From IMG/VR virus record IMGVR_UViG_2541047841_000011: DNA of 51,083 nucleotides, one strand, 5' to 3'. The stretch comes from a virus. Lineage: Duplodnaviria; Heunggongvirae; Uroviricota; Caudoviricetes. The first letter of the stretch is position 1. Every line of letters begins with the position of its first letter. Positions 4,119-46,965 of the stretch are shown here, one piece after another. The position numbers were made by a program, and so were the translations under genes. Below the pieces are notes generated by a model that saw only the letters and a list, made by a program, of their open reading frames with translations, had not been told where the DNA came from and did no database searches.

Positions 4119-4440
4119 GAAACCAGAACATGCACACACAAAAAAACCGCTTGCCATGCCGCAATCAGTCAGGTTACATTTCCGCTGCACCTCACAAAAC
4201 GGGTGCCGGGTTTCGCAGCCTGCTGACTACACAAGCGCACAACCGCGCCAGCGTTTTTTTTGTGCGTACTGTATTGCCACGTTTTTTTCGCGTCAGAATT
4301 ATGGCGGGGCGTACGGGGCCGACTTCGGTCGGGCCGGGTTCTTGTGTAGCCGGTACTGCGAACCTCGTACGTCTCGCCACCCACAGTTTCGCAGCTCTGG
4401 ATGGTGAGTTTTCACAACTTACTACACAAGGGGCCACACC
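4119..4440 (+). other. Structured non-coding region (candidate sRNA/regulatory element)
   Basis: 320 bp without credible ORF inside an otherwise tightly packed operon; hairpin GGCCGAC-TTCG-GTCGGGCC at about 4317..4336; motif TACACAAG at about 4229 and 4424 and inverted as CTTGTGTAG at about 4343; direct repeat GTTTCGCAGC at about 4211 and 4387; T8 run at 4253..4260. Mirror 46644..46965. Confidence 0.4.
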
Positions 4441-4671
4441 ATGGCAAACCGCAAACCACACCGCGCTATCGCGGAGCGTCGTCACATCCAGACTGAAATC
4501 AACCGCAGACTTTCCCGCGCATCACGCGTCGCGCAAATCATGCACATCAATATGCTGCATGAGCGCAGCCACGCACTATCAAACATTTATTCCGCCTCTG
4601 TTTTCAGCTATCTGGCGGATGATCTGCACGAGCTTCAACAGCTCATCCAGCAGCAAAACAAACTCCATTAA
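4441..4671 (+). CDS. Hypothetical protein (76 aa), basic
   Basis: ORF directly after the structured non-coding region. Confidence 0.45.
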   Translation: MANRKPHRAIAERRHIQTEINRRLSRASRVAQIMHINMLHERSHALSNIYSASVFSYLADDLHELQQLIQQQNKLH

Positions 4672-4743
4672 CTCCTGTTCCGGGCCTTTCCTGCACCTTG
4701 CGGCGGGAGGCCTTCGCACATCTGTAACAAGAGGATTGCCGCA

Positions 4744-5109
4744 ATGATTCTCGCCAACGACTTTCTTGAATACCTGCTCAACACAGAACGTGATCTTGCC
4801 GCTCGCGTGCGTGATCGTTATGACATGTACCTGAAATCCCTGCCTGTACCGCAGCTCGCTGACGGAAAGATTGTTATTGATGGTCGCTACATGATTGACA
4901 GCCACGAGGGAAATTACAGGCTTTACCGCATTGAAGGTGGCACCCCGTCCGTTATTGGCATTTACCAGCGCCCATCCTCTGCAATCGTCGATGTGATTGC
5001 CGACAGCATCCGCATCACACATCGCCATGCCGACACAGAAGACACCGTGCTGGAAATTCAGCGGCTGGCTACAGTCTGCCGCGACACCCTGAATGGCATG
5101 ACGAAGTAA
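4744..5109 (+). CDS. Hypothetical protein (121 aa)
   Basis: ORF immediately upstream of gpA with AGAGGA RBS-like sequence. Confidence 0.5.
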   Translation: MILANDFLEYLLNTERDLAARVRDRYDMYLKSLPVPQLADGKIVIDGRYMIDSHEGNYRLYRIEGGTPSVIGIYQRPSSAIVDVIADSIRITHRHADTEDTVLEIQRLATVCRDTLNGMTK

Positions 5110-5115
5110 ATCACT

Positions 5116-7938
5116 ATGACGGCAGAGTACATCAGGGGCTGGCAACAACCGCGCCACGCAGTGGGGCGTGAAGGAACGGGGATCCCCGCTCCTGAATCCG
5201 CGCTTTCCTCCTGGCTGGATGCCTACCGGGTAGAGAACGAGCACCGCCAGGAAATGGCTGATGCGGCGTTCTCCGCAACGCCGCTGGGCAACCTGATTAA
5301 TAAAAGCCTGAACGCACAGGAAAAACAGGACAAAACCATCACACTGGCAGGAGATGCCAGAAAACAGGCACGCGGCGCGGTGGATGAAGCCATGGCCTCG
5401 CTGCGCCTGCTGCCGTCCTATCTGCGCGATCCGCTTATTCGCCACCTCTCCTTCCTGCGCAAAAAACAGGAAGCCGATCGTCAGAAAGGCAAAAAGAGCT
5501 GGCAGGCTGAACGCTACGCGCGCGGAAACCTGCGCAAAATATTCGAACGTCTGGATCGCACCGATCACCGCTGGCTGACACAGGGTTATCGCTCCCTTGC
5601 CGGACGCGAACGCCTGGACGATTTGCTTTACCTGCCGCAGCTCAACAAACACCAGATACAGACACTGGCCACCATGACGGCGGCGATGTTCAGCAGCACC
5701 TTCGAAAAACTCTGCGATGGCTTTGGCGCGACCGATGGCGAACTGACCATGGATGTAACGCTGAAGGCGTATCAGATGCTGGCCCGCATGGCGTTACACC
5801 TGCACGCCATGCCTCCACATTATGACGCACTGACAACAGACAAAGACCGGAGGAACGAACCGGACACGGAGCTGCTGCCGGGCGCAATCCTTCGCCTGAC
5901 CTGTGCAGAATGGTGGAAACGCAAACTGTGGCTGTTACGTTGCGAGTGGAGAGAAGAACAACTCCGCGCCGCCTGTCTGGTTTCCAGAAAAACATCGCCC
6001 TATCTGAGCCAGGACGCGTTAAGCGAGTTTCGCGCACAGCGCGAGAAAACACGCGATTTCCTGAAAAGTTTCATGCTGGAAAATGAAGACGGGTTCACGA
6101 TTGATCTCGAGACGGTGTATTACGCGGGAGTAAGTAACCCGGTTCACCGTAAGGCAGAAATGATGGCCACCATGAAGGGGCTGGAACTTCTGGCCGAAGC
6201 CCGTGGCGACAAAGCGGTGTTTCTGACTGTCACCTGCCCGTCAAAATACCACGCCACAACAGAGAACGGTCATCCGAATCCCAAATGGAACGGGGCCACC
6301 ATGCGCGACTCCAGCGATTACCTGGTTAACACGTTTTTTGCGGCGGTCCGCAAAAAACTGAACCGCGACGGTCTTCGCTGGTATGGCATCCGCACGGTGG
6401 AGCCTCACCATGACGGCACCGTGCACTGGCATATGATGGTCTTTGCGCATCCGGAAGAAATCGACAGCATCGTGGCCATCACCCGCGATATTGCCATTCA
6501 GGAAGACCGCCACGAGCTGGGCAATGATATTACTCCGCGCTTTAAGGCGGAGTATGTCGACGGCTCAAAAGGCACACCAACCAGCTATATCGCGACCTAC
6601 ATCGGAAAGAACCTGGACAGCCGCGCCGTGGATGGCATCGACCCGAAAACGGGCAAGCCACGCGTTGACCACGAAACCGGAAAATCAATGGCCGAGAGTG
6701 TGGAGCGCGCCATCGGCTGGGCGCGCCTTCATCGGGTCCGCCAGTTCCAGTTCTTTGGCATCCCCTCCCGTCAGGTGTGGCGTGAACTGCGCCGCCTTGC
6801 CAGCCAGATGGCACGCAACCCGGAAGGCCCGCAACGACTGAAAGATGACGCAATGGATGCGGTACTCGCTGCCGCCGATGCCGGGTGTTTTGCCACCTAC
6901 ATTGAAAAACAGGGCGGCGTACTTGTTCCACGCAAAGACTACCTGATTCGCACCGCCTACGACCTCGCAGATGAGCTGAATGATTACGGCGAACAGAGCG
7001 TACAGATTTACGGGATCTGGTCACCACTCATCGGGGAATCCTCCCGTGTGTGCACGCATCCGGATAACTGGAAACTGGTAAGACGTAAACCGGAAACGGA
7101 AGACAGCGCCCGCGAAAATGGTTTTGACCTTCAGGGCGGCCCTGCCGCCCCTTGGACTCGTGGCAATAACTGTCCCCGTGTACAGGAAACGGACAACAAC
7201 GGGACAGAACAGCCGGAAGAACGGCCAGCACCGTGGCCGCAGCTCCCTGACGGCGTTGAAGTGAACGAATGGATGCGCTCACTGAAACGACACGAACGCC
7301 GGGCGCTGATGCGTTCGCTTCGTGACAAACAGGCAAAAAACAGCAGCGATGAAATGCAGAGCTGGACACAGAGCCGCAAACAGCAGCGGCCTTTGCCTGA
7401 TAACCACGAATTACTCGCTAAAGAATGGCGGGAGTCTGCTGAATCTCTCGGCCTGCATATCGGTGAACAACAGATGCAGCACCTGTTACGGGGCGGCAGT
7501 CTGTACGTTGACGGCAGCATCATTGCACCGCAGGGATTTGAAATTGTACGCAAACCGGATACCCGCCCGGACAGCCGAATCACGCAGCTCTGGCAGCGCC
7601 TGAGCCGTAATCACGGCGTAAGCAGCACGGAGATCCGCCATAACCCGGTCTCCAGCTATCTGGCACAGCTCGGGGCATCAGACCCCGAAGCCGCCGCACG
7701 CCTGGCATCCACACTTCAGCAGGTCCAGAACACCATGAAAACACCCGTTACCGTGCTTTCTGACATGCTGCGCGCCATTCGTGACGCAGAGCACGCACAG
7801 AGAATCAGAGAAACCACTGAACGCGCCCGCCGCAAAGCAAACCTGCTGAGGACTGGCCTGACCAGTGGAAACAAAAAACAGACAGAAACGGGATTCACAA
7901 ATCCCGTAAATGAGCAAAAAACGCGCCGCGATATATGA
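5116..7938 (+). CDS. A: Rolling-circle replication initiator (P2 gpA-like HUH endonuclease), 940 aa
   Basis: HUH motif TVHWHMMVF and paired-tyrosine motif YIATYIGKN (YxxxY) typical of superfamily-I RCR initiators; position matches P2 A; about 300 extra C-terminal residues. Confidence 0.88.
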   Translation: MTAEYIRGWQQPRHAVGREGTGIPAPESALSSWLDAYRVENEHRQEMADAAFSATPLGNLINKSLNAQEKQDKTITLAGDARKQARGAVDEAMASLRLLPSYLRDPLIRHLSFLRKKQEADRQKGKKSWQAERYARGNLRKIFERLDRTDHRWLTQGYRSLAGRERLDDLLYLPQLNKHQIQTLATMTAAMFSSTFEKLCDGFGATDGELTMDVTLKAYQMLARMALHLHAMPPHYDALTTDKDRRNEPDTELLPGAILRLTCAEWWKRKLWLLRCEWREEQLRAACLVSRKTSPYLSQDALSEFRAQREKTRDFLKSFMLENEDGFTIDLETVYYAGVSNPVHRKAEMMATMKGLELLAEARGDKAVFLTVTCPSKYHATTENGHPNPKWNGATMRDSSDYLVNTFFAAVRKKLNRDGLRWYGIRTVEPHHDGTVHWHMMVFAHPEEIDSIVAITRDIAIQEDRHELGNDITPRFKAEYVDGSKGTPTSYIATYIGKNLDSRAVDGIDPKTGKPRVDHETGKSMAESVERAIGWARLHRVRQFQFFGIPSRQVWRELRRLASQMARNPEGPQRLKDDAMDAVLAAADAGCFATYIEKQGGVLVPRKDYLIRTAYDLADELNDYGEQSVQIYGIWSPLIGESSRVCTHPDNWKLVRRKPETEDSARENGFDLQGGPAAPWTRGNNCPRVQETDNNGTEQPEERPAPWPQLPDGVEVNEWMRSLKRHERRALMRSLRDKQAKNSSDEMQSWTQSRKQQRPLPDNHELLAKEWRESAESLGLHIGEQQMQHLLRGGSLYVDGSIIAPQGFEIVRKPDTRPDSRITQLWQRLSRNHGVSSTEIRHNPVSSYLAQLGASDPEAAARLASTLQQVQNTMKTPVTVLSDMLRAIRDAEHAQRIRETTERARRKANLLRTGLTSGNKKQTETGFTNPVNEQKTRRDI

Positions 7939-8014: not shown

Positions 8015-8974
8015 ATGAAAATTTGTATCGACGACGGCTCCACCAACATCAAGCTGGCATGGACTGAGAATGGCGAACGCCGCAACGCCATCAGCCCGAA
8101 CAGCTTCAAGTCGGAATGGTCTGCGCCGTTCGGTGGCATGCAGCCCGCGAACTACATGCTTGATGGCGTGCGCTATGGTTTTGATCCGGTCAGCGATCGC
8201 TTTGTCCAGACGACCGACACGCAATACCAGTACAGCGATGTGAATGTAATCGCCATTCATCACGCGCTGGTCAAATCAGGCATCACGCCACAAGAGGTGG
8301 ATGTGGTTGTCACCCTGCCACTGAGCGAGTATTTCGAGACAAACGCACAGCCGGACATGGCCAACATCAACCGCAAAAAAGCGAACGTTATGCGCTCGGT
8401 GGAGTACCAGAACGGCGAAGCATTCACTATCCGTAACGTGCGGGTTATGCCTGAATCCATTCCGGCTGGCTTTAAAGCACTGGCTGACATGAGTCCGTTT
8501 GAATCCCTGCTGATTGTGGATTTAGGCGGAACCACGCTGGATGTGGCAAAGGTTCAAGGGCAACTGGCAGGTATCAGCCAGGTGTTTTGCGATCCACACG
8601 TAGGCGTTTCCCTGATGGCCGATGCCGTACTGTCGGTGATGGCCACTAACGGTATGCGCACCAGTCACCACATCGCCAATACCATTATCGAACATCGCCA
8701 TGATGAAGCCTGGCTGCGCCAGCACATCCACAATGACGCGCATTACGCCAGCCTGATGGCGGTTATTCGTGAAAAGGAAGAAACACTGAAACAACGCGTG
8801 ATCCGCGCGCTGGCGGTTTTTTCGGGTTACGGGCGGGTGATGGTTGTCGGTGGAGGGGCGGAGATTGTGGCACCCGCTATCCGCGAAGTCTGCGGAGTTA
8901 ATGCGACTTTCATCGCGGACGGGGTGCCACAGTTTGCTCTGGTTAATGGGCTGTACGCAATGGACAAGGAGTAA
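8015..8974 (+). CDS. parM: ParM/StbA-like actin-fold ATPase
   Basis: Actin-fold motifs IDDGSTNIK (phosphate 1), VDLGGTTLD (phosphate 2), VGGGAE (adenosine); length 319 aa as for ParM. Confidence 0.78.
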   Translation: MKICIDDGSTNIKLAWTENGERRNAISPNSFKSEWSAPFGGMQPANYMLDGVRYGFDPVSDRFVQTTDTQYQYSDVNVIAIHHALVKSGITPQEVDVVVTLPLSEYFETNAQPDMANINRKKANVMRSVEYQNGEAFTIRNVRVMPESIPAGFKALADMSPFESLLIVDLGGTTLDVAKVQGQLAGISQVFCDPHVGVSLMADAVLSVMATNGMRTSHHIANTIIEHRHDEAWLRQHIHNDAHYASLMAVIREKEETLKQRVIRALAVFSGYGRVMVVGGGAEIVAPAIREVCGVNATFIADGVPQFALVNGLYAMDKE

Positions 8975-22613: not shown

Positions 22614-24848
22614 ATGAGTACCACAACACGAAAATTTAAAACCGTTATCACCGATACAGGTGCAAAAAAATTAGCTCAGGCAGCCGCGCCAGATGGTAAG
22701 CCTGTCCGCCTGACTCATATGGCCGTGGGCGACGGTGGCGGCACGTTGCCCACACCAGACAGTAAGCAGACCCGTCTGGTGCATGAGGTGTGGCGACACA
22801 CTGTTAATCGCGTCATCCTGGACGCAACACATCAGAACCGCATTATTGCGGAGCTGGTTATACCTCCTGAAACGGGCGGATTCTGGATCCGGGAAATTGG
22901 TGTATTTGATGAGCACGGCGATTTAATCGCGGTGGGCAATACTGCCGAAAGTTACAAGCCAACCGTTGCCGAGGGGTCCGGACGTGCACAAACATTTCGC
23001 ACCATTCTGACCGTATCCAGCACTGCCAGCGTGGCGCTTACCGTGGATAACACCATGGTGATGGCCACAGTGGATTACGTGGATGACAAACTGAAAGAGC
23101 ATGAACAGTCACGACGTCACCCGGATGCCTCGCTGACCGCAAAAGGCTTTGTTCAACTCAGTAGCGCCACTAACAGCGATTCTGAAACGCTGGCCGCAAC
23201 GCCGAAAGCGGTTAAGGCCGCGTATGACCTGGCTAACGGAAAATATACCGCTCAGGACGCCACGACGGCACGAAAAGGGATAGTCCAGCTCAGCAGTGCA
23301 ACCAACAGCACGTCTGAAACGCAGGCTGCAACGCCGAAAGCAGTAAAGGCGGCATATGACCTTGCTAACGCAAAATATACCGCTCAGGACGCAACGACGG
23401 CACGAAAAGGGATAGTTCAGCTCAGTAGCGCCACTAACAGCCCGTCTGAAACGCTGGCTGCGACACCAAAAGCGGTTAAGGCGGTAATGGATGAAACGAA
23501 CAAGAAAGCGCCTTTAAACAGTCCTGCGCTGACCGGAACGCCAACAACGCCAACTGCGCGACAGGGAACGAATAATACCCAAATCGCAAGCACGGCTTTC
23601 GTTATGGCTGCGATTGCCGCCCTTGTAGATTCGTCACCTGACGCACTGAATACGCTGAACAAGTTAGCGGCGGCGCTGGGAAACGACCCGAATTTTGCGA
23701 CCACCATGACTAACGCGCTTGCGGGTAAGCAACCGAAAGATGCCACCCTGACGGCGCTGGCCGGGCTTGCTACTGCGGCAGACAGGTTTCCGTATTTTAC
23801 GGGGAATGATGTCGCCAGCCTGGCAACCCTGACAAAAGTCGGGCGGGATATTCTTGCGAAATCGACCGTTGCTGCCGTTATCGAATACCTCGGTTTACAG
23901 GAAACGGTAAATCAGGCTTCTGGCGCATTACAGAAAAACCAGAACGGCGCAGATATTCCGGGTAAAGATACCTTCACCAAAAACATTGGTGCCTGCCGCG
24001 CATATAGCGCATGGCTGAATATTGGTGGCGATAGTCAGGTCTGGACAACTGCGCAATTTATTTCGTGGCTGGAGAGTCAGGGGGCATTTAACCATCCTTA
24101 CTGGATGTGCAAAGGCTCATGGGCTTATGCAAATAATAAGGTCATTACAGATACAGGTTGCGGAAATATTTGTCTTGCAGGTGCTGTGGTGGAAGTTATT
24201 GGCACTCGCGGCGCAATGACCATACGCGTTACTACGCCGAGTACGTCCAGCGGCGGCGGAATTACTAACGCTCAATTCACCTATATTAATCATGGTGATG
24301 CTTATGCTCCTGGCTGGCGACGAGACTACAACACGAAAAACCAGCAGCCTGCATTTGCTTTAGGGCAAACAGGACGCAGGGTCGCAAATGATAAAGCTGT
24401 TGGCTGGAACTGGAATAGCGGTGTTTATGATGCAGATATCAGTGGTGCATCGACATTAATCCTCCACTTCAATATGAATGCGGGGAGTTGCCCTGCTGTA
24501 CAGTTCCGCGTGAATTACAGGAACGGCGGTATCTTTTATCGTTCAGCGCGTGATGGTTATGGCTTTGAAGCTAACTGGTCAGAGTTTTACACCACAACCC
24601 GCAAACCCTCTGCGGGGGATGTTGGTGCATATACGCAGGCAGAATGTAATTCAAGGTTTATTACAGGTATTCGCTTGGGCGGTCTGTCATCTGTTCAGAC
24701 ATGGAATGGTCCCGGCTGGTCTGACAGGTCAGGTTATGTCGTTACGGGTTCAGTTAACGGAAACCGTGATGAATTAATTGATACAACTCAGGCAAGGCCA
24801 GTTCAGTATTGCATTAATGGGACGTGGTATAACGCGGGGAGTATTTAA
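22614..24848 (+). CDS. H: Tail fibre protein H, variant 1 (constant N-terminus plus variable C-terminus Hv1)
   Basis: 744 aa; N-terminal part with 44-aa SSATNS...ATPKAVK repeats identical to the 842-aa mirror ORF up to ...[10 protein letters not shown]; C-terminus diverges after the 26-bp crossover site at 23878..23903. Confidence 0.9.
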   Translation: MSTTTRKFKTVITDTGAKKLAQAAAPDGKPVRLTHMAVGDGGGTLPTPDSKQTRLVHEVWRHTVNRVILDATHQNRIIAELVIPPETGGFWIREIGVFDEHGDLIAVGNTAESYKPTVAEGSGRAQTFRTILTVSSTASVALTVDNTMVMATVDYVDDKLKEHEQSRRHPDASLTAKGFVQLSSATNSDSETLAATPKAVKAAYDLANGKYTAQDATTARKGIVQLSSATNSTSETQAATPKAVKAAYDLANAKYTAQDATTARKGIVQLSSATNSPSETLAATPKAVKAVMDETNKKAPLNSPALTGTPTTPTARQGTNNTQIASTAFVMAAIAALVDSSPDALNTLNKLAAALGNDPNFATTMTNALAGKQPKDATLTALAGLATAADRFPYFTGNDVASLATLTKVGRDILAKSTVAAVIEYLGLQETVNQASGALQKNQNGADIPGKDTFTKNIGACRAYSAWLNIGGDSQVWTTAQFISWLESQGAFNHPYWMCKGSWAYANNKVITDTGCGNICLAGAVVEVIGTRGAMTIRVTTPSTSSGGGITNAQFTYINHGDAYAPGWRRDYNTKNQQPAFALGQTGRRVANDKAVGWNWNSGVYDADISGASTLILHFNMNAGSCPAVQFRVNYRNGGIFYRSARDGYGFEANWSEFYTTTRKPSAGDVGAYTQAECNSRFITGIRLGGLSSVQTWNGPGWSDRSGYVVTGSVNGNRDELIDTTQARPVQYCINGTWYNAGSI
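23141..23490 (+). repeat. 132-bp tandem repeat (2.6 units) inside tail fibre gene
   Basis: Units start at 23141, 23273, 23405; encode 44-aa fibre repeat [44 protein letters not shown]. Mirror 27594..27943. Confidence 0.85.
23878..23903. other. Left crossover site for a Gin/Hin/Cin/Pin-family serine invertase (gix-like)
   Basis: TTATCGAATACC-TC-GGTTTACAGGAA, a 12-2-12 imperfect palindrome matching the Din-family site as I recall it (Mu gix about TTATCCAAAACC-TC-GGTTTACAGGAA), at the constant/variable junction of the fibre gene. Confidence 0.75.
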
Positions 24849-24850
24849 CG

Positions 24851-25384
24851 ATGATGCACTTAAAAAACATTACTGCTGGCAACCCTAAAACAAAAGAGCA
24901 ATACCAGCTAACGAAACAATTTAACATCAAATGGCTTTATTCAGAGGATGGAAAAAACTGGTATGAGGAACAAAAGAATTTCCAGCCAGACACTTTGAAA
25001 ATGGTCTATGACCATAACGGCGTTATTATTTGTATTGAAAAGGATGTTTCAGCAATTAATCCGGAAGGCGCAAGCGTCGTTGAATTACCTGATATTACAG
25101 CAAATCGCCGTGCTGACATTTCGGGTAAATGGATGTTCAAAGATGGCGTAGTGGTAAAGCGAACTTATACCGAGGAAGAGCAGAGGCAGCAGGCGGAAAA
25201 TGAAAAGCAAAGCCTGCTACAGCTCGTCAGGGATAAAACCCAGCTATGGGACTCACAGCTACGGCTGGGCATCATTTCCGACGAGAATAAACAAAAATTA
25301 ACAGAGTGGATGCTCTTTGCGCAGAAAGTCGAATCTACAGACACTTCCAGCCTGCCAGTAACGTTTCCCGAACAACCAGAATGA
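24851..25384 (+). CDS. G: Tail fibre assembly protein, variant 1 (P2 gpG / Mu U-like)
   Basis: 177 aa, MMHLKNITAGNPKT...[14 protein letters not shown]; immediately follows Hv1. Confidence 0.85.
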   Translation: MMHLKNITAGNPKTKEQYQLTKQFNIKWLYSEDGKNWYEEQKNFQPDTLKMVYDHNGVIICIEKDVSAINPEGASVVELPDITANRRADISGKWMFKDGVVVKRTYTEEEQRQQAENEKQSLLQLVRDKTQLWDSQLRLGIISDENKQKLTEWMLFAQKVESTDTSSLPVTFPEQPE

Positions 25385-25387
25385 GAG

Positions 25388-25414
25388 AAGGCCTGATATC
25401 GGGCCTTAATTTTT
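25388..25414. terminator. Bidirectional hairpin between convergent tail-fibre assembly genes
   Basis: AAGGCC-TGATATC-GGGCCTT followed by AATTTTT; lies in the 28-bp gap between stops at 25384 and 25413. Confidence 0.5.
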
Positions 25415-25940
25415 ACTCAGGCTTTTGTGGCCATTCGGGCTTTGCCGTATCCACACGGCTGACCATAACACTGTAGCGTTCCCATGACTCCAGTCGTGCG
25501 CATTCCTCATCCGTCGCCATATTCAGCCTGACAGCGCGTTCCAGTGGCTGAATAACGCTTTCCGCTTCGGAAAGTAACGCGGCCTTTTGTGATTCTGCCT
25601 GTTGTTGCTGTTCATCTGCCGTATAAATCCGTTTAACCACAGCACCATCCTTAAACATCCATTTACCTGAGTCGTCAGCACGTCGGTTGGAGGTAATATC
25701 AGGAACCTCAACAACGCTAAAACCTTCAGGATTAAGCGTTGAAGCATCTCTGGTGATAGCGACAATAATATTATTTTCATCGTAAACAATCTTTATTGTG
25801 TCTGACTGAAAGTTCTTCACTTCCTCATACCAGTTTTTCCCGTCTTCAGTGTAAAGCCAGATGACTCCATGCTTCTTTGTTAACTCATACTGTTCCAGTG
25901 TTTTAGCGTTACCCGCTTTTATGTTCTTTAAGTGCATCAT
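25413..25940 (-). CDS. Tail fibre assembly protein, variant 2 (Mu U-prime-like)
   Basis: 175 aa, [14 protein letters not shown]...[14 protein letters not shown]; homologous to but distinct from variant 1. Confidence 0.85.
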
Positions 25941-25941
25941 A

Positions 25942-28470
25942 TTAAACGCTCGCTACATTATACCATGTGCCATTTATATACTTTTGAACGGGTCTGTAAT
26001 AAACACCCGCAATATTATCGGCGGAGTTGGAACCTGTATCCTGAACATTTATACCAGACAATACATGACCTGAAGGGCACTGGAAGTTCCATGTTTGCCA
26101 GTTGTTCACACCATAATATTGCTGTGAGCCAAGCCGAACATCTTTCACATATCTGGAATCAATGTTACCCCAGTTGCTTGGTTGTATCTGACCGTTTACA
26201 GCAAATGTCACCGAGTTATCTGTATTTCGCTGACTATAGAAATGCCAGCCTGAATCATCACCAAGCTCTGCAACAGTTGGTCTTGACGAATTTCCCCACA
26301 AGTTAAATGATGCATTACGGGCAGCGGTATTTGCACTTGAAAGTGTGAATAACTTACTTTCCCCAGCCTGAATACCCTTTAATGATATTGCTGAGCCATT
26401 TCTAAAGCGGAATACATGCACACCATTAGCATAAGCATCCAGCACCCCATCACCATTTTGTTTAAACCCAGTATCGTTATCTCCTAAAACTATTGAATTT
26501 CCCCCCAGGGCATTAGCCGTTCCAATCCCCAGATTTCCGCTAAAAATGGCATTAATACCGAATATTGAGTGAGAACAATAAAACCCTCGCCCATTGTTAA
26601 AATCCAGAATGGCTTGTGCGTTCGTGCTTTCTGTCGCGGGATTAGTTGCTCCCCACTTATATGTTGTTTGACCGACGGTATAATCCTGAGTTGGAACAAT
26701 AACCGTTAGCCCTTCTTCGGCAAAAACTCGCACAGGAAAAGCCCTGCCTTCAACGTAAAAAACGCTGCATACATCATCTTCTTTAAGGCTTGTTACAATG
26801 GAATGGATTGCGCGCTCATTAGTCTGATACGTCGAAAAATAACCTGCCGCATATGAACCACGATCAGTCCAGCCACCAGGCATTACCATTCCATTGAATT
26901 CGCAGTTATTCATTGCGTAATCACCACTGGCAGATGTGGTCGTTATAATCACTCTGGAAGCCAGCTCGCCAGTGCTGCCTGTGGAACGCCGGAAAATAAC
27001 TGGATACCACTTTCCACCAACTGCATTAGACGGCGCATTAAATGCGTACTGCCGCATTCCTTTTTTCTTATCCACCTCGCCTTTGCTGTAAACATTAATG
27101 TTACTCAGGAAGCGATCCTTATCAGGAATATCCGCGCCGTTCTGTTTTTTTTGTAATGCGCCAGAAGCCAGATTTACCGTTTCCTGCAAACCGAGGTATT
27201 CGATAACGGCAGCAACGGTCGATTTCGCAAGAATATCCCGCCCGACTTTTGTCAGGGTTGCCAGGCTGGCGACATCATTCCCCGTAAAATACGGAAACCT
27301 GTCTGCCGCAGTAGCAAGCCCGGCCAGCGCCGTCAGGGTGGCATCTTTCGGTTGCTTACCCGCAAGCGCGTTAGTCATGGTGGTCGCAAAATTCGGGTCG
27401 TTTCCCAGCGCCGCCGCTAACTTGTTCAGCGTATTCAGTGCGTCAGGTGACGAATCTACAAGGGCGGCAATCGCAGCCATAACGAAAGCCGTGCTTGCGA
27501 TTTGGGTATTATTCGTTCCCTGTCGCGCAGTTGGCGTTGTTGGCGTTCCGGTCAGCGCAGGACTGTTTAAAGGCGCTTTCTTGTTCGTTTCATCCATTAC
27601 CGCCTTAACCGCTTTTGGTGTCGCAGCCAGCGTTTCAGACGGGCTGTTAGTGGCGCTACTGAGCTGAACTATCCCTTTTCGTGCCGTCGTTGCGTCCTGA
27701 GCGGTATATTTTGCGTTAGCAAGGTCATATGCCGCCTTTACTGCTTTCGGCGTTGCAGCCTGCGTTTCAGACGTGCTGTTGGTTGCACTGCTGAGCTGGA
27801 CTATCCCTTTTCGTGCCGTCGTGGCGTCCTGAGCGGTATATTTTCCGTTAGCCAGGTCATACGCGGCCTTAACCGCTTTCGGCGTTGCGGCCAGCGTTTC
27901 AGAATCGCTGTTAGTGGCGCTACTGAGTTGAACAAAGCCTTTTGCGGTCAGCGAGGCATCCGGGTGACGTCGTGACTGTTCATGCTCTTTCAGTTTGTCA
28001 TCCACGTAATCCACTGTGGCCATCACCATGGTGTTATCCACGGTAAGCGCCACGCTGGCAGTGCTGGATACGGTCAGAATGGTGCGAAATGTTTGTGCAC
28101 GTCCGGACCCCTCGGCAACGGTTGGCTTGTAACTTTCGGCAGTATTGCCCACCGCGATTAAATCGCCGTGCTCATCAAATACACCAATTTCCCGGATCCA
28201 GAATCCGCCCGTTTCAGGAGGTATAACCAGCTCCGCAATAATGCGGTTCTGATGTGTTGCGTCCAGGATGACGCGATTAACAGTGTGTCGCCACACCTCA
28301 TGCACCAGACGGGTCTGCTTACTGTCTGGTGTGGGCAACGTGCCGCCACCGTCGCCCACGGCCATATGAGTCAGGCGGACAGGCTTACCATCTGGCGCGG
28401 CTGCCTGAGCTAATTTTTTTGCACCTGTATCGGTGATAACGGTTTTAAATTTTCGTGTTGTGGTACTCAT
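25942..28470 (-). CDS. Tail fibre protein H, variant 2 (constant N-terminus plus variable C-terminus Hv2, P2 H-like tip)
   Basis: 842 aa; first roughly 430 aa identical to variant 1; C-terminus ends ...[13 protein letters not shown]...RYVKDVRLG...[13 protein letters not shown], which resembles my recollection of the P2 gpH end. Confidence 0.9.
27181..27206. other. Right crossover site for a Din-family serine invertase (gix-like)
   Basis: TTCCTGCAAACC-GA-GGTATTCGATAA, reverse complement of the left site except one base (27187). Confidence 0.75.
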
Positions 28471-46643: not shown

Positions 46644-46965
46644 GGTGTGGCCCCTTGTGTAGTAAGTTGTGAAAACTCACCATCCAGAGCTGCGAAACTG
46701 TGGGTGGCGAGACGTACGAGGTTCGCAGTACCGGCTACACAAGAACCCGGCCCGACCGAAGTCGGCCCCGTACGCCCCGCCATAATTCTGACGCGAAAAA
46801 AACGTGGCAATACAGTACGCACAAAAAAAACGCTGGCGCGGTTGTGCGCTTGTGTAGTCAGCAGGCTGCGAAACCCGGCACCCGTTTTGTGAGGTGCAGC
46901 GGAAATGTAACCTGACTGATTGCGGCATGGCAAGCGGTTTTTTTGTGTGTGCATGTTCTGGTTTC

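Follow-up and report, generated by a model that had tools for sequence, protein, structure and literature searches.

Features of the locus

The window analyzed here is the whole stretch of 51,083 nucleotides in the IMG/VR virus record IMGVR_UViG_2541047841_000011, which belongs to a P88-like phage (genus Xuanwuvirus, Peduoviridae; P2 family). Upstream of the region of interest, a 320-bp island at 4119–4440 of the early operon, lie the C/Cox switch and a set of small early genes; downstream of it follow, in this order, a gene for a 76-amino acid (aa) protein resembling P4 epsilon, orf121, the replication gene gpA and ParM. The original prediction had described the island as a structured non-coding stretch with a hairpin and several repeats. 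We found that it carries a leader RNA of the IsrK/P4 seqA type with a putative promoter of its own, a C4/P4 CI type antisense RNA gene and short targets of this RNA on both of its sides (Table 1). The island very likely serves the phage as an RNA-based immunity module of the P1 immI/P4 type inside its early operon.

Table 1. Features of the island and its surroundings, with their positions in the window
Feature	Position	Strand	Remarks
Long open reading frame, Phage_ASH, eta-like	4130–4747	+	205 codons, ATG start
Putative sigma-70 promoter	4151–4180	+	−35 TTGCCA 4151–4156, 18-nt spacer, −10 TACATT 4175–4180 (promoter scan)
Leader RNA of IsrK/P4 seqA/P1 a1b1 type	4187–4261	+	Rfam RF01394; hairpin 1, 4187–4206; hairpin 2, 4207–4222, with a1 in its loop; single-stranded b1; GC hairpin and U8
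a1 target GTTTCGCAGC	4210–4219	+	core TTCGCAG 4212–4218; complementary to a′
b1 target CTACACAAG	4227–4235	+	complementary to the b′ loop
T8 run	4254–4261	+	U8 of the terminator
C4/P4 CI type antisense RNA gene	4297–4384	+	Rfam RF01695
b′ element CUUGUGUAG	4341–4349	+	12-nt loop of P3
a′ element CUGCGAA	4356–4362	+	single-stranded bulge 3′ of P3
a2 target GTTTCGCAGC	4386–4395	+	core 4388–4394; directly 3′ of the C4 RNA
b2 target CTACACAAG	4422–4430	+	runs into Shine-Dalgarno GGGG 4430–4433; start codon 4441
Epsilon-like gene, 76 aa	4441–4671	+	homologue of P4 epsilon (helper derepression/anti-repressor)
orf121	4744–5109	+	PHROG 3237
gpA	5116–7938	+	replication endonuclease (rolling-circle nickase)
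Mirror copy of the whole module	46644–46965	−	arms exact reverse complements

The island encodes two RNAs of known families

The covariance-model search that the original prediction had proposed gave two full-length Rfam matches above the gathering scores, and the suggestion that the island might encode a small RNA was borne out twice over. RF01695 (C4) was matched over its positions 1–87 of 87 with 83.2 bits (gathering score 45; E = 5.9e-15), and RF01394 (IsrK) over its positions 1–77 of 77 with 57.5 bits (gathering score 50). By every feature that can be tested on the sequence, the segments 4297–4384 and 4187–4261 belong to the C4 and IsrK RNA families, respectively.

The C4 RNA consists of a long closing stem, the hairpin P2 with a UUCG loop (4319–4332) and the hairpin P3 with a loop of 12 nt. 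The predicted minimum free energy fold of 4302–4379 (−47.1 kcal/mol; z = −4.84) matches the Rfam consensus, and its energy was reached by none of 200 shuffled sequences. The hairpin CCGAC-UUCG-GUCGG seen originally does exist, and it is only one arm, P2, of this three-helix RNA. When 14 diverse homologues were aligned, 98.7% of the cells in the C4 pairs were occupied by standard pairs, and 13 of the 27 pairs showed compensatory changes, a result obtained in none of 500 shuffles; sliding the partners by 1–3 columns as a control reduced the pairing to 33–45%. The flanks AAUUAU-GG and GCCACC are also conserved. Within the invariant AAUUAUGG, an AUG (4301–4303) occupies positions 5–7 of the C4 RNA and is in the frame, f1, of the long open reading frame (ORF) described below. 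In P1, c4 is released from a longer transcript, RNase P cutting its 5′ end, and builds up in lysogens; with the annotated c4 of P1 (L007 3344–3420) as a guide, the mature C4 RNA of the window is predicted to extend from about 4303 to 4381.

The leader is preceded by TTGCCA-18-TACATT, the only well-placed promoter-like site in the scan, and the transcription start predicted from it (about 4187) coincides with position 1 of the IsrK model. Among 14 diverged loci that were aligned, whose leaders are 44% identical on average, four positions of the −10 box (T, A, A, T) are invariant, and a TTGnnn −35 box stands at an equal distance in all of them. Both boxes align position for position with the annotated P1 promoter P1c4, formerly P51b (L007 3196–3201 and 3219–3224). 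The island is thus predicted to carry its own internal promoter. A second promoter-like site, at 4274–4302, was rejected, as its −10 box lies in the 5′ flank of C4 and transcription from it would start inside the closing stem.

Co-variation was also observed in the two hairpins at the 5′ side of the leader: helix 1 has four compensatory pairs, and none of 500 shuffles attained the covariation score. The same leader scored 20.9 bits with the P1 family RF03163 (c4-a1b1), below its threshold of 46.7; since the IsrK model was matched above and c4-a1b1 below threshold, we assign it to the IsrK/seqA subtype and not to the P1 subtype. The T8 run noticed earlier is the U-run of the leader terminator. 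In P88 and in Citrobacter phage Shae_phiSM (hereafter Shae), the terminator stem is an intact 5 bp. The terminator of the window (4243–4261) reads GCGTT where P88 and Shae have GCGGT, so that one stem pair is lost, and its U-run is extended from 7 to 8. With this pair lost, the terminator of the window allele may be leaky, and the two changes together might increase read-through into C4.

The repeats are an antisense recognition set

The original prediction had pointed to a sequence present in three copies, two direct and one inverted, and to a pair of direct repeats. Both are in place and above chance. The first, TACACAAG, occurs at 4228–4235 and 4423–4430 on the plus strand and inverted at 4341–4348; counting the mirror arm of the window, it has 6 matches against 0.98 expected (0 of 100 shuffles). 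The second, GTTTCGCAGC, has 4 matches, counted in the same way, against 0.22 expected (0 of 100 shuffles). The earlier reader was right that these repeats are meaningful, and missed their role: judged by their complementarity, they form an antisense target/anti-target set, a1/b1, b′/a′ and a2/b2. In the window, the elements of the C4 RNA are exactly complementary to targets on both sides of it, over a 9-mer (b) and a 7-mer (a).

The position of b2 is such that its pairing with C4 would occlude a ribosome-binding site (RBS). The Shine-Dalgarno GGGG ends 7 nt before the ATG at 4441, and b2 abuts it, 7–11 nt before this ATG. The UCU 5′ of b′ is conserved, and in every specificity type it pairs with the AGA/AGG of the target Shine-Dalgarno.

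We compared the elements among phages and in 129 IMG/VR loci with the same epsilon-like gene. The b1/b′/b2 elements correspond to CTACACAAG in the window, CAACTACAG in P88 and CAACCAAAG in Shae, the three copies changing in step; a1/a′/a2 likewise change in step from TTCGCAG (window) to TTTCCAC (P88) and TTGGAAC (Shae), although the module as a whole is ~87% identical. The 129 loci contain 18 loop/bulge combinations, and b′ pairs at 9–10 of 10 positions with both b1 and b2. This triple co-variation holds in 15 phages, including lambdoid phages, P4 (at the seqA/seqC positions) and P1 (with its annotated a1/b1/a2/b2). The duplex of the window C4 RNA with its cognate a2b2 was calculated at −33.8 kcal/mol, compared with −17.2 for the P88 target and −14.1 for the Shae target. 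The co-variation of the three copies is the decisive evidence for reading the repeats as a recognition set.

The same observation bears on the earlier suggestions that the island might be a replication or recombination site, or hold a protein operator. Direct and inverted repeats close to a replication gene are what an origin or an operator could look like. However, the repeats co-vary in a way that preserves complementarity and not the identity of a protein site; the region has no iterons or AT-rich unwinding element, and the P2 origin is annotated inside gene A. As RNA–RNA pairing explains every repeat, we rejected the origin, recombination and operator readings, to which we give next to no credence. 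Of the proposed internal promoter/operator, only the promoter stands.

We also observed that the a and b elements reassort independently; the a element CTGCGAA, for example, is found with nine different b′ loops (IMG/VR loci L018–L154). This suggests recombination inside the ~200-bp module.

The diversity of the elements raises another possibility, that the module acts chiefly between genetic elements, by cross-immunity or interference with prophages or P4-like satellites of the same a/b specificity. There are many specificity types with independently reassorting elements, and up to four copies of the module are found in one Escherichia coli genome. Some a elements are common to unrelated phages: TCGCAG is also present in Stx1_14040, with whose target the window C4 would form a duplex of −31.8 kcal/mol, and GTGAGAA of P4 is found in Klebsiella phage NAR688. 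A role in defence against satellites was suggested by Barquist et al. (PMC3632133). On the other hand, the targets lie in cis on the same transcript and b2 covers the RBS of the phage's own gene; both a and b must match, and no full match with a satellite was found here. Moreover, the heteroimmunity of P1/P7 is a by-product of a self-regulatory mechanism. We consider it unlikely that action between elements is the chief function of the module.

A long reading frame spans the RNA genes

The claim that the island has no credible ORF did not survive. An ATG-initiated frame of 205 codons (4130–4747) crosses the island, beginning upstream of the internal promoter, running through the leader, C4 and a2/b2, and overlapping the epsilon-like gene out of frame. 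Its start codon follows the stop of the gene before it by 11 nt, and at the other end its TGA and the ATG of orf121 share an ATGA (4744–4747), a junction of the same style as those between the neighboring early genes; if it is counted, the packing of the early genes is not interrupted. The product scores 29.7 bits with Pfam Phage_ASH (cut-off 26) and is labelled ‘ash family protein’ in RefSeq. The frame is open in 120 of the 129 related loci, and in 116 of these an ATGA joins its end to the next gene. In P4, six lambdoid phages, P88 and Shae, it contains no stop from the promoter through the leader and C4 to a2/b2. In one IMG/VR locus, the epsilon-like gene is truncated and the overlapping long frame is intact.

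A spanning gene, thought of as a frameshifted one, had been named originally as a finding that would refute a non-coding island. Such a gene is formally present, as an intact ORF, but it coexists with the RNA genes, like eta of P4, and does not replace them. The simplest opposing view would be that the region is a plain protein-coding gene of the ‘Ash family’ in which the hairpin and the repeats are incidental. The intact ORF with its above-threshold Pfam match, the PHROG ‘transcriptional repressor’ and RefSeq labels, the ATGA junction and the phage records that annotate the long ORF instead of the epsilon-like gene agree with such a view. However, the matches to Phage_ASH and to PHROGs 6928, 995 and 821 (‘transcriptional repressor/regulator’) cover only aa 4–112, within 4130–4470 of the window, which is the RNA-coding DNA, and the 95 C-terminal residues have no match, while the gene overlapping them has its own Pfam family. 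Phage_ASH has as its prototype the old ‘cI protein’ ORF of P4 (L008 8168–8584), which overlaps the CI RNA and is a strong member of the family. Because the matches are limited to the RNA-coding part and include this ORF, the Phage_ASH and PHROG families largely reflect conservation at the RNA level, and their names seem to have been inherited from the ‘cI protein’ of P4, now obsolete. Compensatory pairs and triple a/b co-variation are predicted by RNA pairing and not by a protein, and the Ash frame has no excess of third-position changes (16 of 53 substitutions between window and Shae). With respect to the epsilon frame, the substitutions in the overlap number 16, 14 and 23 at positions 1, 2 and 3, a distribution too flat to tell which frame is constrained. 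A plain Ash gene is a very improbable explanation of the region.

The epsilon-like gene and the genes behind it

The 76-aa protein encoded directly behind b2 matches Pfam PF25738 (Derepression) with 32.5 bits against a cut-off of 27, as well as PHROG 3688, and carries the RefSeq label ‘derepression protein’. In BLASTP, it is 32% identical to P4 epsilon over 50 aa (E = 7e-9). P4 epsilon inactivates the C repressor of P2, and the 76-aa protein is predicted from these similarities to be an epsilon-like anti-repressor. A wider search of genome contigs for epsilon-like genes of greater divergence yielded a single locus.

In a direct comparison, the orf121 product was unrelated to P4 orf151. No Ant, Bro or KilA domain was found in the downstream proteins with Pfam and PHROG, and the three proteins searched against NCBIfam gave no matches. 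A GC-rich hairpin at 4682–4713, in the gap that separates the epsilon-like gene from orf121, was no more stable than shuffled sequences (z = −0.5). Directly after gpA, this integrase-carrying P2-like phage encodes an actin-like ParM segregation protein (8015–8974) and a partition protein, which may point to a plasmid-like phase or to a means of stabilising genomes while they replicate.

Comparison with known modules

The order and spacing of the elements in the window are the same as in the immI region of P1/P7 (P51b, a1 b1, c4, a2 b2, icd, ant). In P1, b′ is located in the hairpin loop, a′ in the 3′ bulge and a2 immediately after the RNA, as is the case here, and the distance of b2 from the start codon matches that in P1, where b2 lies 11 nt before icd. 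The specificity elements are hypervariable in both, and in P1/P7 they are the basis of heteroimmunity. In P1, c4 represses translation, which leads to Rho-dependent termination. The differences concern the surroundings: immI regulates icd-ant, whereas the window has the epsilon-like gene, orf121 and gpA and no icd/ant homologues; frame f1 closes inside c4 in P1, whereas it is open here; and P1 is a plasmid prophage, unlike the P2-like, integrating phage of the window.

The likeness to P4 (PLE, seqA, CI RNA/seqB, seqC, kil/eta, epsilon, orf151, alpha) extends beyond the RNAs. Its seqA matches IsrK and its CI matches C4, as in the window, and an epsilon-family gene followed by a replication gene is an order common to both. 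The eta gene of P4, which is the old ‘cI/Ash’ ORF, starts upstream of the internal promoter, spans the RNA genes and gives a Phage_ASH signal, as does the long ORF here. In P4, pairing of CI with seqA/seqC causes premature termination (PMC10111431; PMC3632133; PMC4825925). For eta, kil, CI and seqA the mechanism has been described (PMC10111431, citing Forti 1999 and Sabbattini 1995): the start of eta precedes the constitutive internal promoter, only transcripts of the upstream promoter are used for its translation, and this translation prevents immunity-dependent termination (PMC10111431, citing Forti 1999), while Kil, the in-frame 3′ part of eta, is translated from read-through transcripts (PMC10111431). 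However, kil is the in-frame end of eta after seqC in P4, with epsilon next, whereas in the window the epsilon-like gene stands directly behind b2 and out of frame. The replication protein is the alpha primase-helicase in P4 and the rolling-circle nickase gpA here, and the window module resides in a helper-type phage with a C repressor and Cox switch, unlike the P4 satellite.

In lambdoid coliphages (Stx phages, mEp460, ST64B), we observed the same two Rfam matches, promoter and triple complementarity, and the module likewise lies in the early rightward operon, immediately before the replication genes. An ATGA couples the start of their long ORF to the gene before it, and the anti-repressor (Ant/Rha/Bro type) begins in the long-ORF frame, with nested long and short forms; in contrast, the gene in the window is epsilon-like and out of frame.

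The annotations of these lambdoid phages deserve a separate remark. A coding sequence (CDS) of ~384 aa, annotated as ‘antirepressor / Rha / peptidase’, crosses the internal promoter, the IsrK leader and the C4 RNA (L005 1146–2297, L006 1141–2292, L009 1046–2203, L013 1141–2286). It begins by an ATGA overlap on a cII-like gene, and a shorter, in-frame anti-repressor is nested after b2. This layout, which the annotations do not reflect, looks like that of P4 eta/kil.

The Gifsy-1 prophage of Salmonella has a comparable arrangement, isrK-orf45/STnc1160-anrP, in which an IsrK leader with its own promoter and terminator is followed, upon read-through, by a C4-like RNA and an anti-repressor (PMC4825925). 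Its anti-repressor is a different protein, and the prophage is lambdoid and feeds the anti-terminator AntQ. According to the published mechanism, the short leader RNA activates in trans via a 45-codon upstream ORF. This suggests that the module could be an IsrK-type positive switch, in which the leader would bind the read-through transcript in trans or sponge C4 and open the structure for translation, possibly from the AUG in AAUUAUGG; turning on the epsilon-like gene, orf121 and gpA would then be an induction trigger and not immunity. The leader is above the IsrK threshold, and the AUG at C4 positions 5–7 is invariant and in frame f1. In Gifsy-1, IsrK supplied in trans raised anrP translation more than 100-fold via the upstream orf45, which overlaps the C4-like STnc1160, and prophage induction needed the isrK promoter (PMC4825925). 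In addition, P88-type prophages have no obvious Tum-like SOS anti-repressor in the region examined. Nevertheless, the three-way co-variation together with b2 on the RBS is the signature of C4 repression known from P1/P7 and P4 (PMC3632133), and the RNase P cleavage expected from P1 would cut beside the AUG at 4301. We consider the positive switch rather unlikely, while regarding the Gifsy-1 activation model as a real alternative or complement: titration of C4 by the leader is compatible with a C4 repressor, and the two modes are hence not exclusive.

Proposed mode of action

Returning to the immunity module, we propose the following sequence of events. Transcripts carrying the a1/b1 leader would start at about 4187 from the constitutive internal promoter, and many of them would stop at the leader hairpin and U8, giving a short IsrK/seqA-type RNA. 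The transcripts that read through would yield the C4/CI-type RNA, which would be excised and accumulate; its 5′ end would probably be made by RNase P, as happens in P1. Its b′ and a′ elements would then pair with a2/b2 on read-through transcripts, covering the Shine-Dalgarno of the epsilon-like gene and blocking its translation. Loss of translational coupling or Rho-dependent polarity would subsequently silence the genes behind it; orf121 and gpA are probably controlled by polarity in this way, and in a lysogen the termination of untranslated RNA would keep them silent. Pairing with a1/b1 may either reinforce early termination, as in P4, or allow the leader to titrate C4, as for IsrK.

During the lytic cycle, the situation would be different. 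Early transcripts from the upstream promoter Pe would include the start of the long ORF at 4130, and ribosomes translating it would melt the structures and pairings and prevent termination. By protecting the transcript, they would make lytic gpA expression insensitive to immunity, as for P4 eta. We are less certain of this part of the proposal.

Several observations weigh against these proposals. Transcription, processing and the direction of regulation are all argued from homology, and the leader RNA of Gifsy-1 was reported to activate, not to repress, the downstream anti-repressor (PMC4825925), so that the net sign of control could differ. In the leader terminator, Rfam marks two non-standard pairs, and a simple terminator scan does not call it. 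The long frame is absent in 9 of the 129 related loci and also in P1, NAR688 and Escherichia phage GER2. The probability that it stays open by chance across the epsilon-like gene is 0.19–0.33 when the codons of that gene are permuted and 0.008–0.10 when codons are resampled from genome usage; the indication that selection keeps it open there is weak. Furthermore, the window, P88 and Shae have the gene that follows b2 in frame f0, whereas in P4 and the lambdoid phages it is in the long-ORF frame f1, and the nested-gene logic of P4 is for this reason not directly transferable.

Distribution of the module

The pair of IsrK and C4 was found in P88, Shae, nine other phages, mostly lambdoid (Stx phages, mEp460, ST64B), and P4; the gap between the two RNAs is ~25–35 nt, and ~110 nt in P4. 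In P1, C4 and c4-a1b1 score above threshold and IsrK below. In Escherichia phage GER2, we also noted a match to the Rfam family sRNA-Xcc1 (L011 2102–2185; 75.7 bits against a gathering score of 53), ~500 nt downstream of C4. Conservation in P2-like phages, which had been proposed as a check, is thus confined to part of the family: the module is 99–100% identical in several P88-like phages and ~87% identical in P88 and Shae, whereas the early regions of P2 and 186 matched neither C4 nor IsrK at E ≤ 0.1. It is therefore specific to the P88-like ones among the prototypes of the P2 family that were tested. At a level of at least 80% identity, the module is present in 1153 of 5426 complete E. coli genomes (21%).

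In the literature, IsrK has already been equated with seqA and C4 with CI (PMC3632133; PMC10111431). Our literature search found no paper describing the module in P88-like phages, and papers naming Xuanwuvirus do not take it up. In kind, the module is ordinary; Rfam models recognise it directly, and its flanks already receive labels from annotation pipelines. Two points are of note: that a P2-like phage carries it and that a long reading frame overlies it.

The mirror arm of the window

Positions 1–23896 of the window are the exact reverse complement of 27187–51083, and a mirror copy of the module therefore exists, exactly where the original prediction had placed it. The Rfam matches are identical on this arm (46700–46787 and 46823–46897, minus strand). 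The unique centre (22614–28470) consists of two head-to-head units, each with a tail-fibre gene and a tail-fibre-assembly gene (22614–24848 and 24851–25384 on the plus strand, 25413–25940 and 25942–28470 on the minus strand), and the two tail fibres have N-terminal domains in common. Probably the assembly turned back on itself at a host-range segment that is duplicated or invertible, and the second arm of the inverted duplication, including the mirror module, is therefore probably an assembly artefact.

Implications

With these results, a structured spacer that had lacked an explanation becomes a fully labelled regulatory module whose base-pairing partners can be tested. They also expose an annotation problem, as a translated RNA gene underlies Phage_ASH, several of the PHROG families called ‘transcriptional repressor’ and the ‘ash family protein’ of RefSeq; phage records alternate between the long ORF and the epsilon-like gene, and the anti-repressor CDSs of lambdoid phages are drawn through RNA genes.

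For the biology of the P88-like phages, we tentatively put forward a broader view, which is possible but which we hold with less than even confidence. These phages would run a second, RNA-based and hypervariable immunity layer over C/Cox, gating an epsilon-type anti-repressor and gpA. The same 320 bp would then have three uses: they would hold two RNA genes, contribute to a translated pass-through ORF by which transcripts of the early operon escape the immunity RNA and, by means of this ORF further on, take part in an out-of-frame overlap with the anti-repressor gene. As epsilon and CI/seqA are hallmarks of the P4 satellite, the module would represent a regulatory currency shared by helper-type phages and satellites. 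In P2-like prophages as widespread as these in E. coli, antisense immunity of the P4/P1 kind ahead of an epsilon-like anti-repressor and a replicase would bear on prophage induction and on the cross-talk between helpers and satellites.

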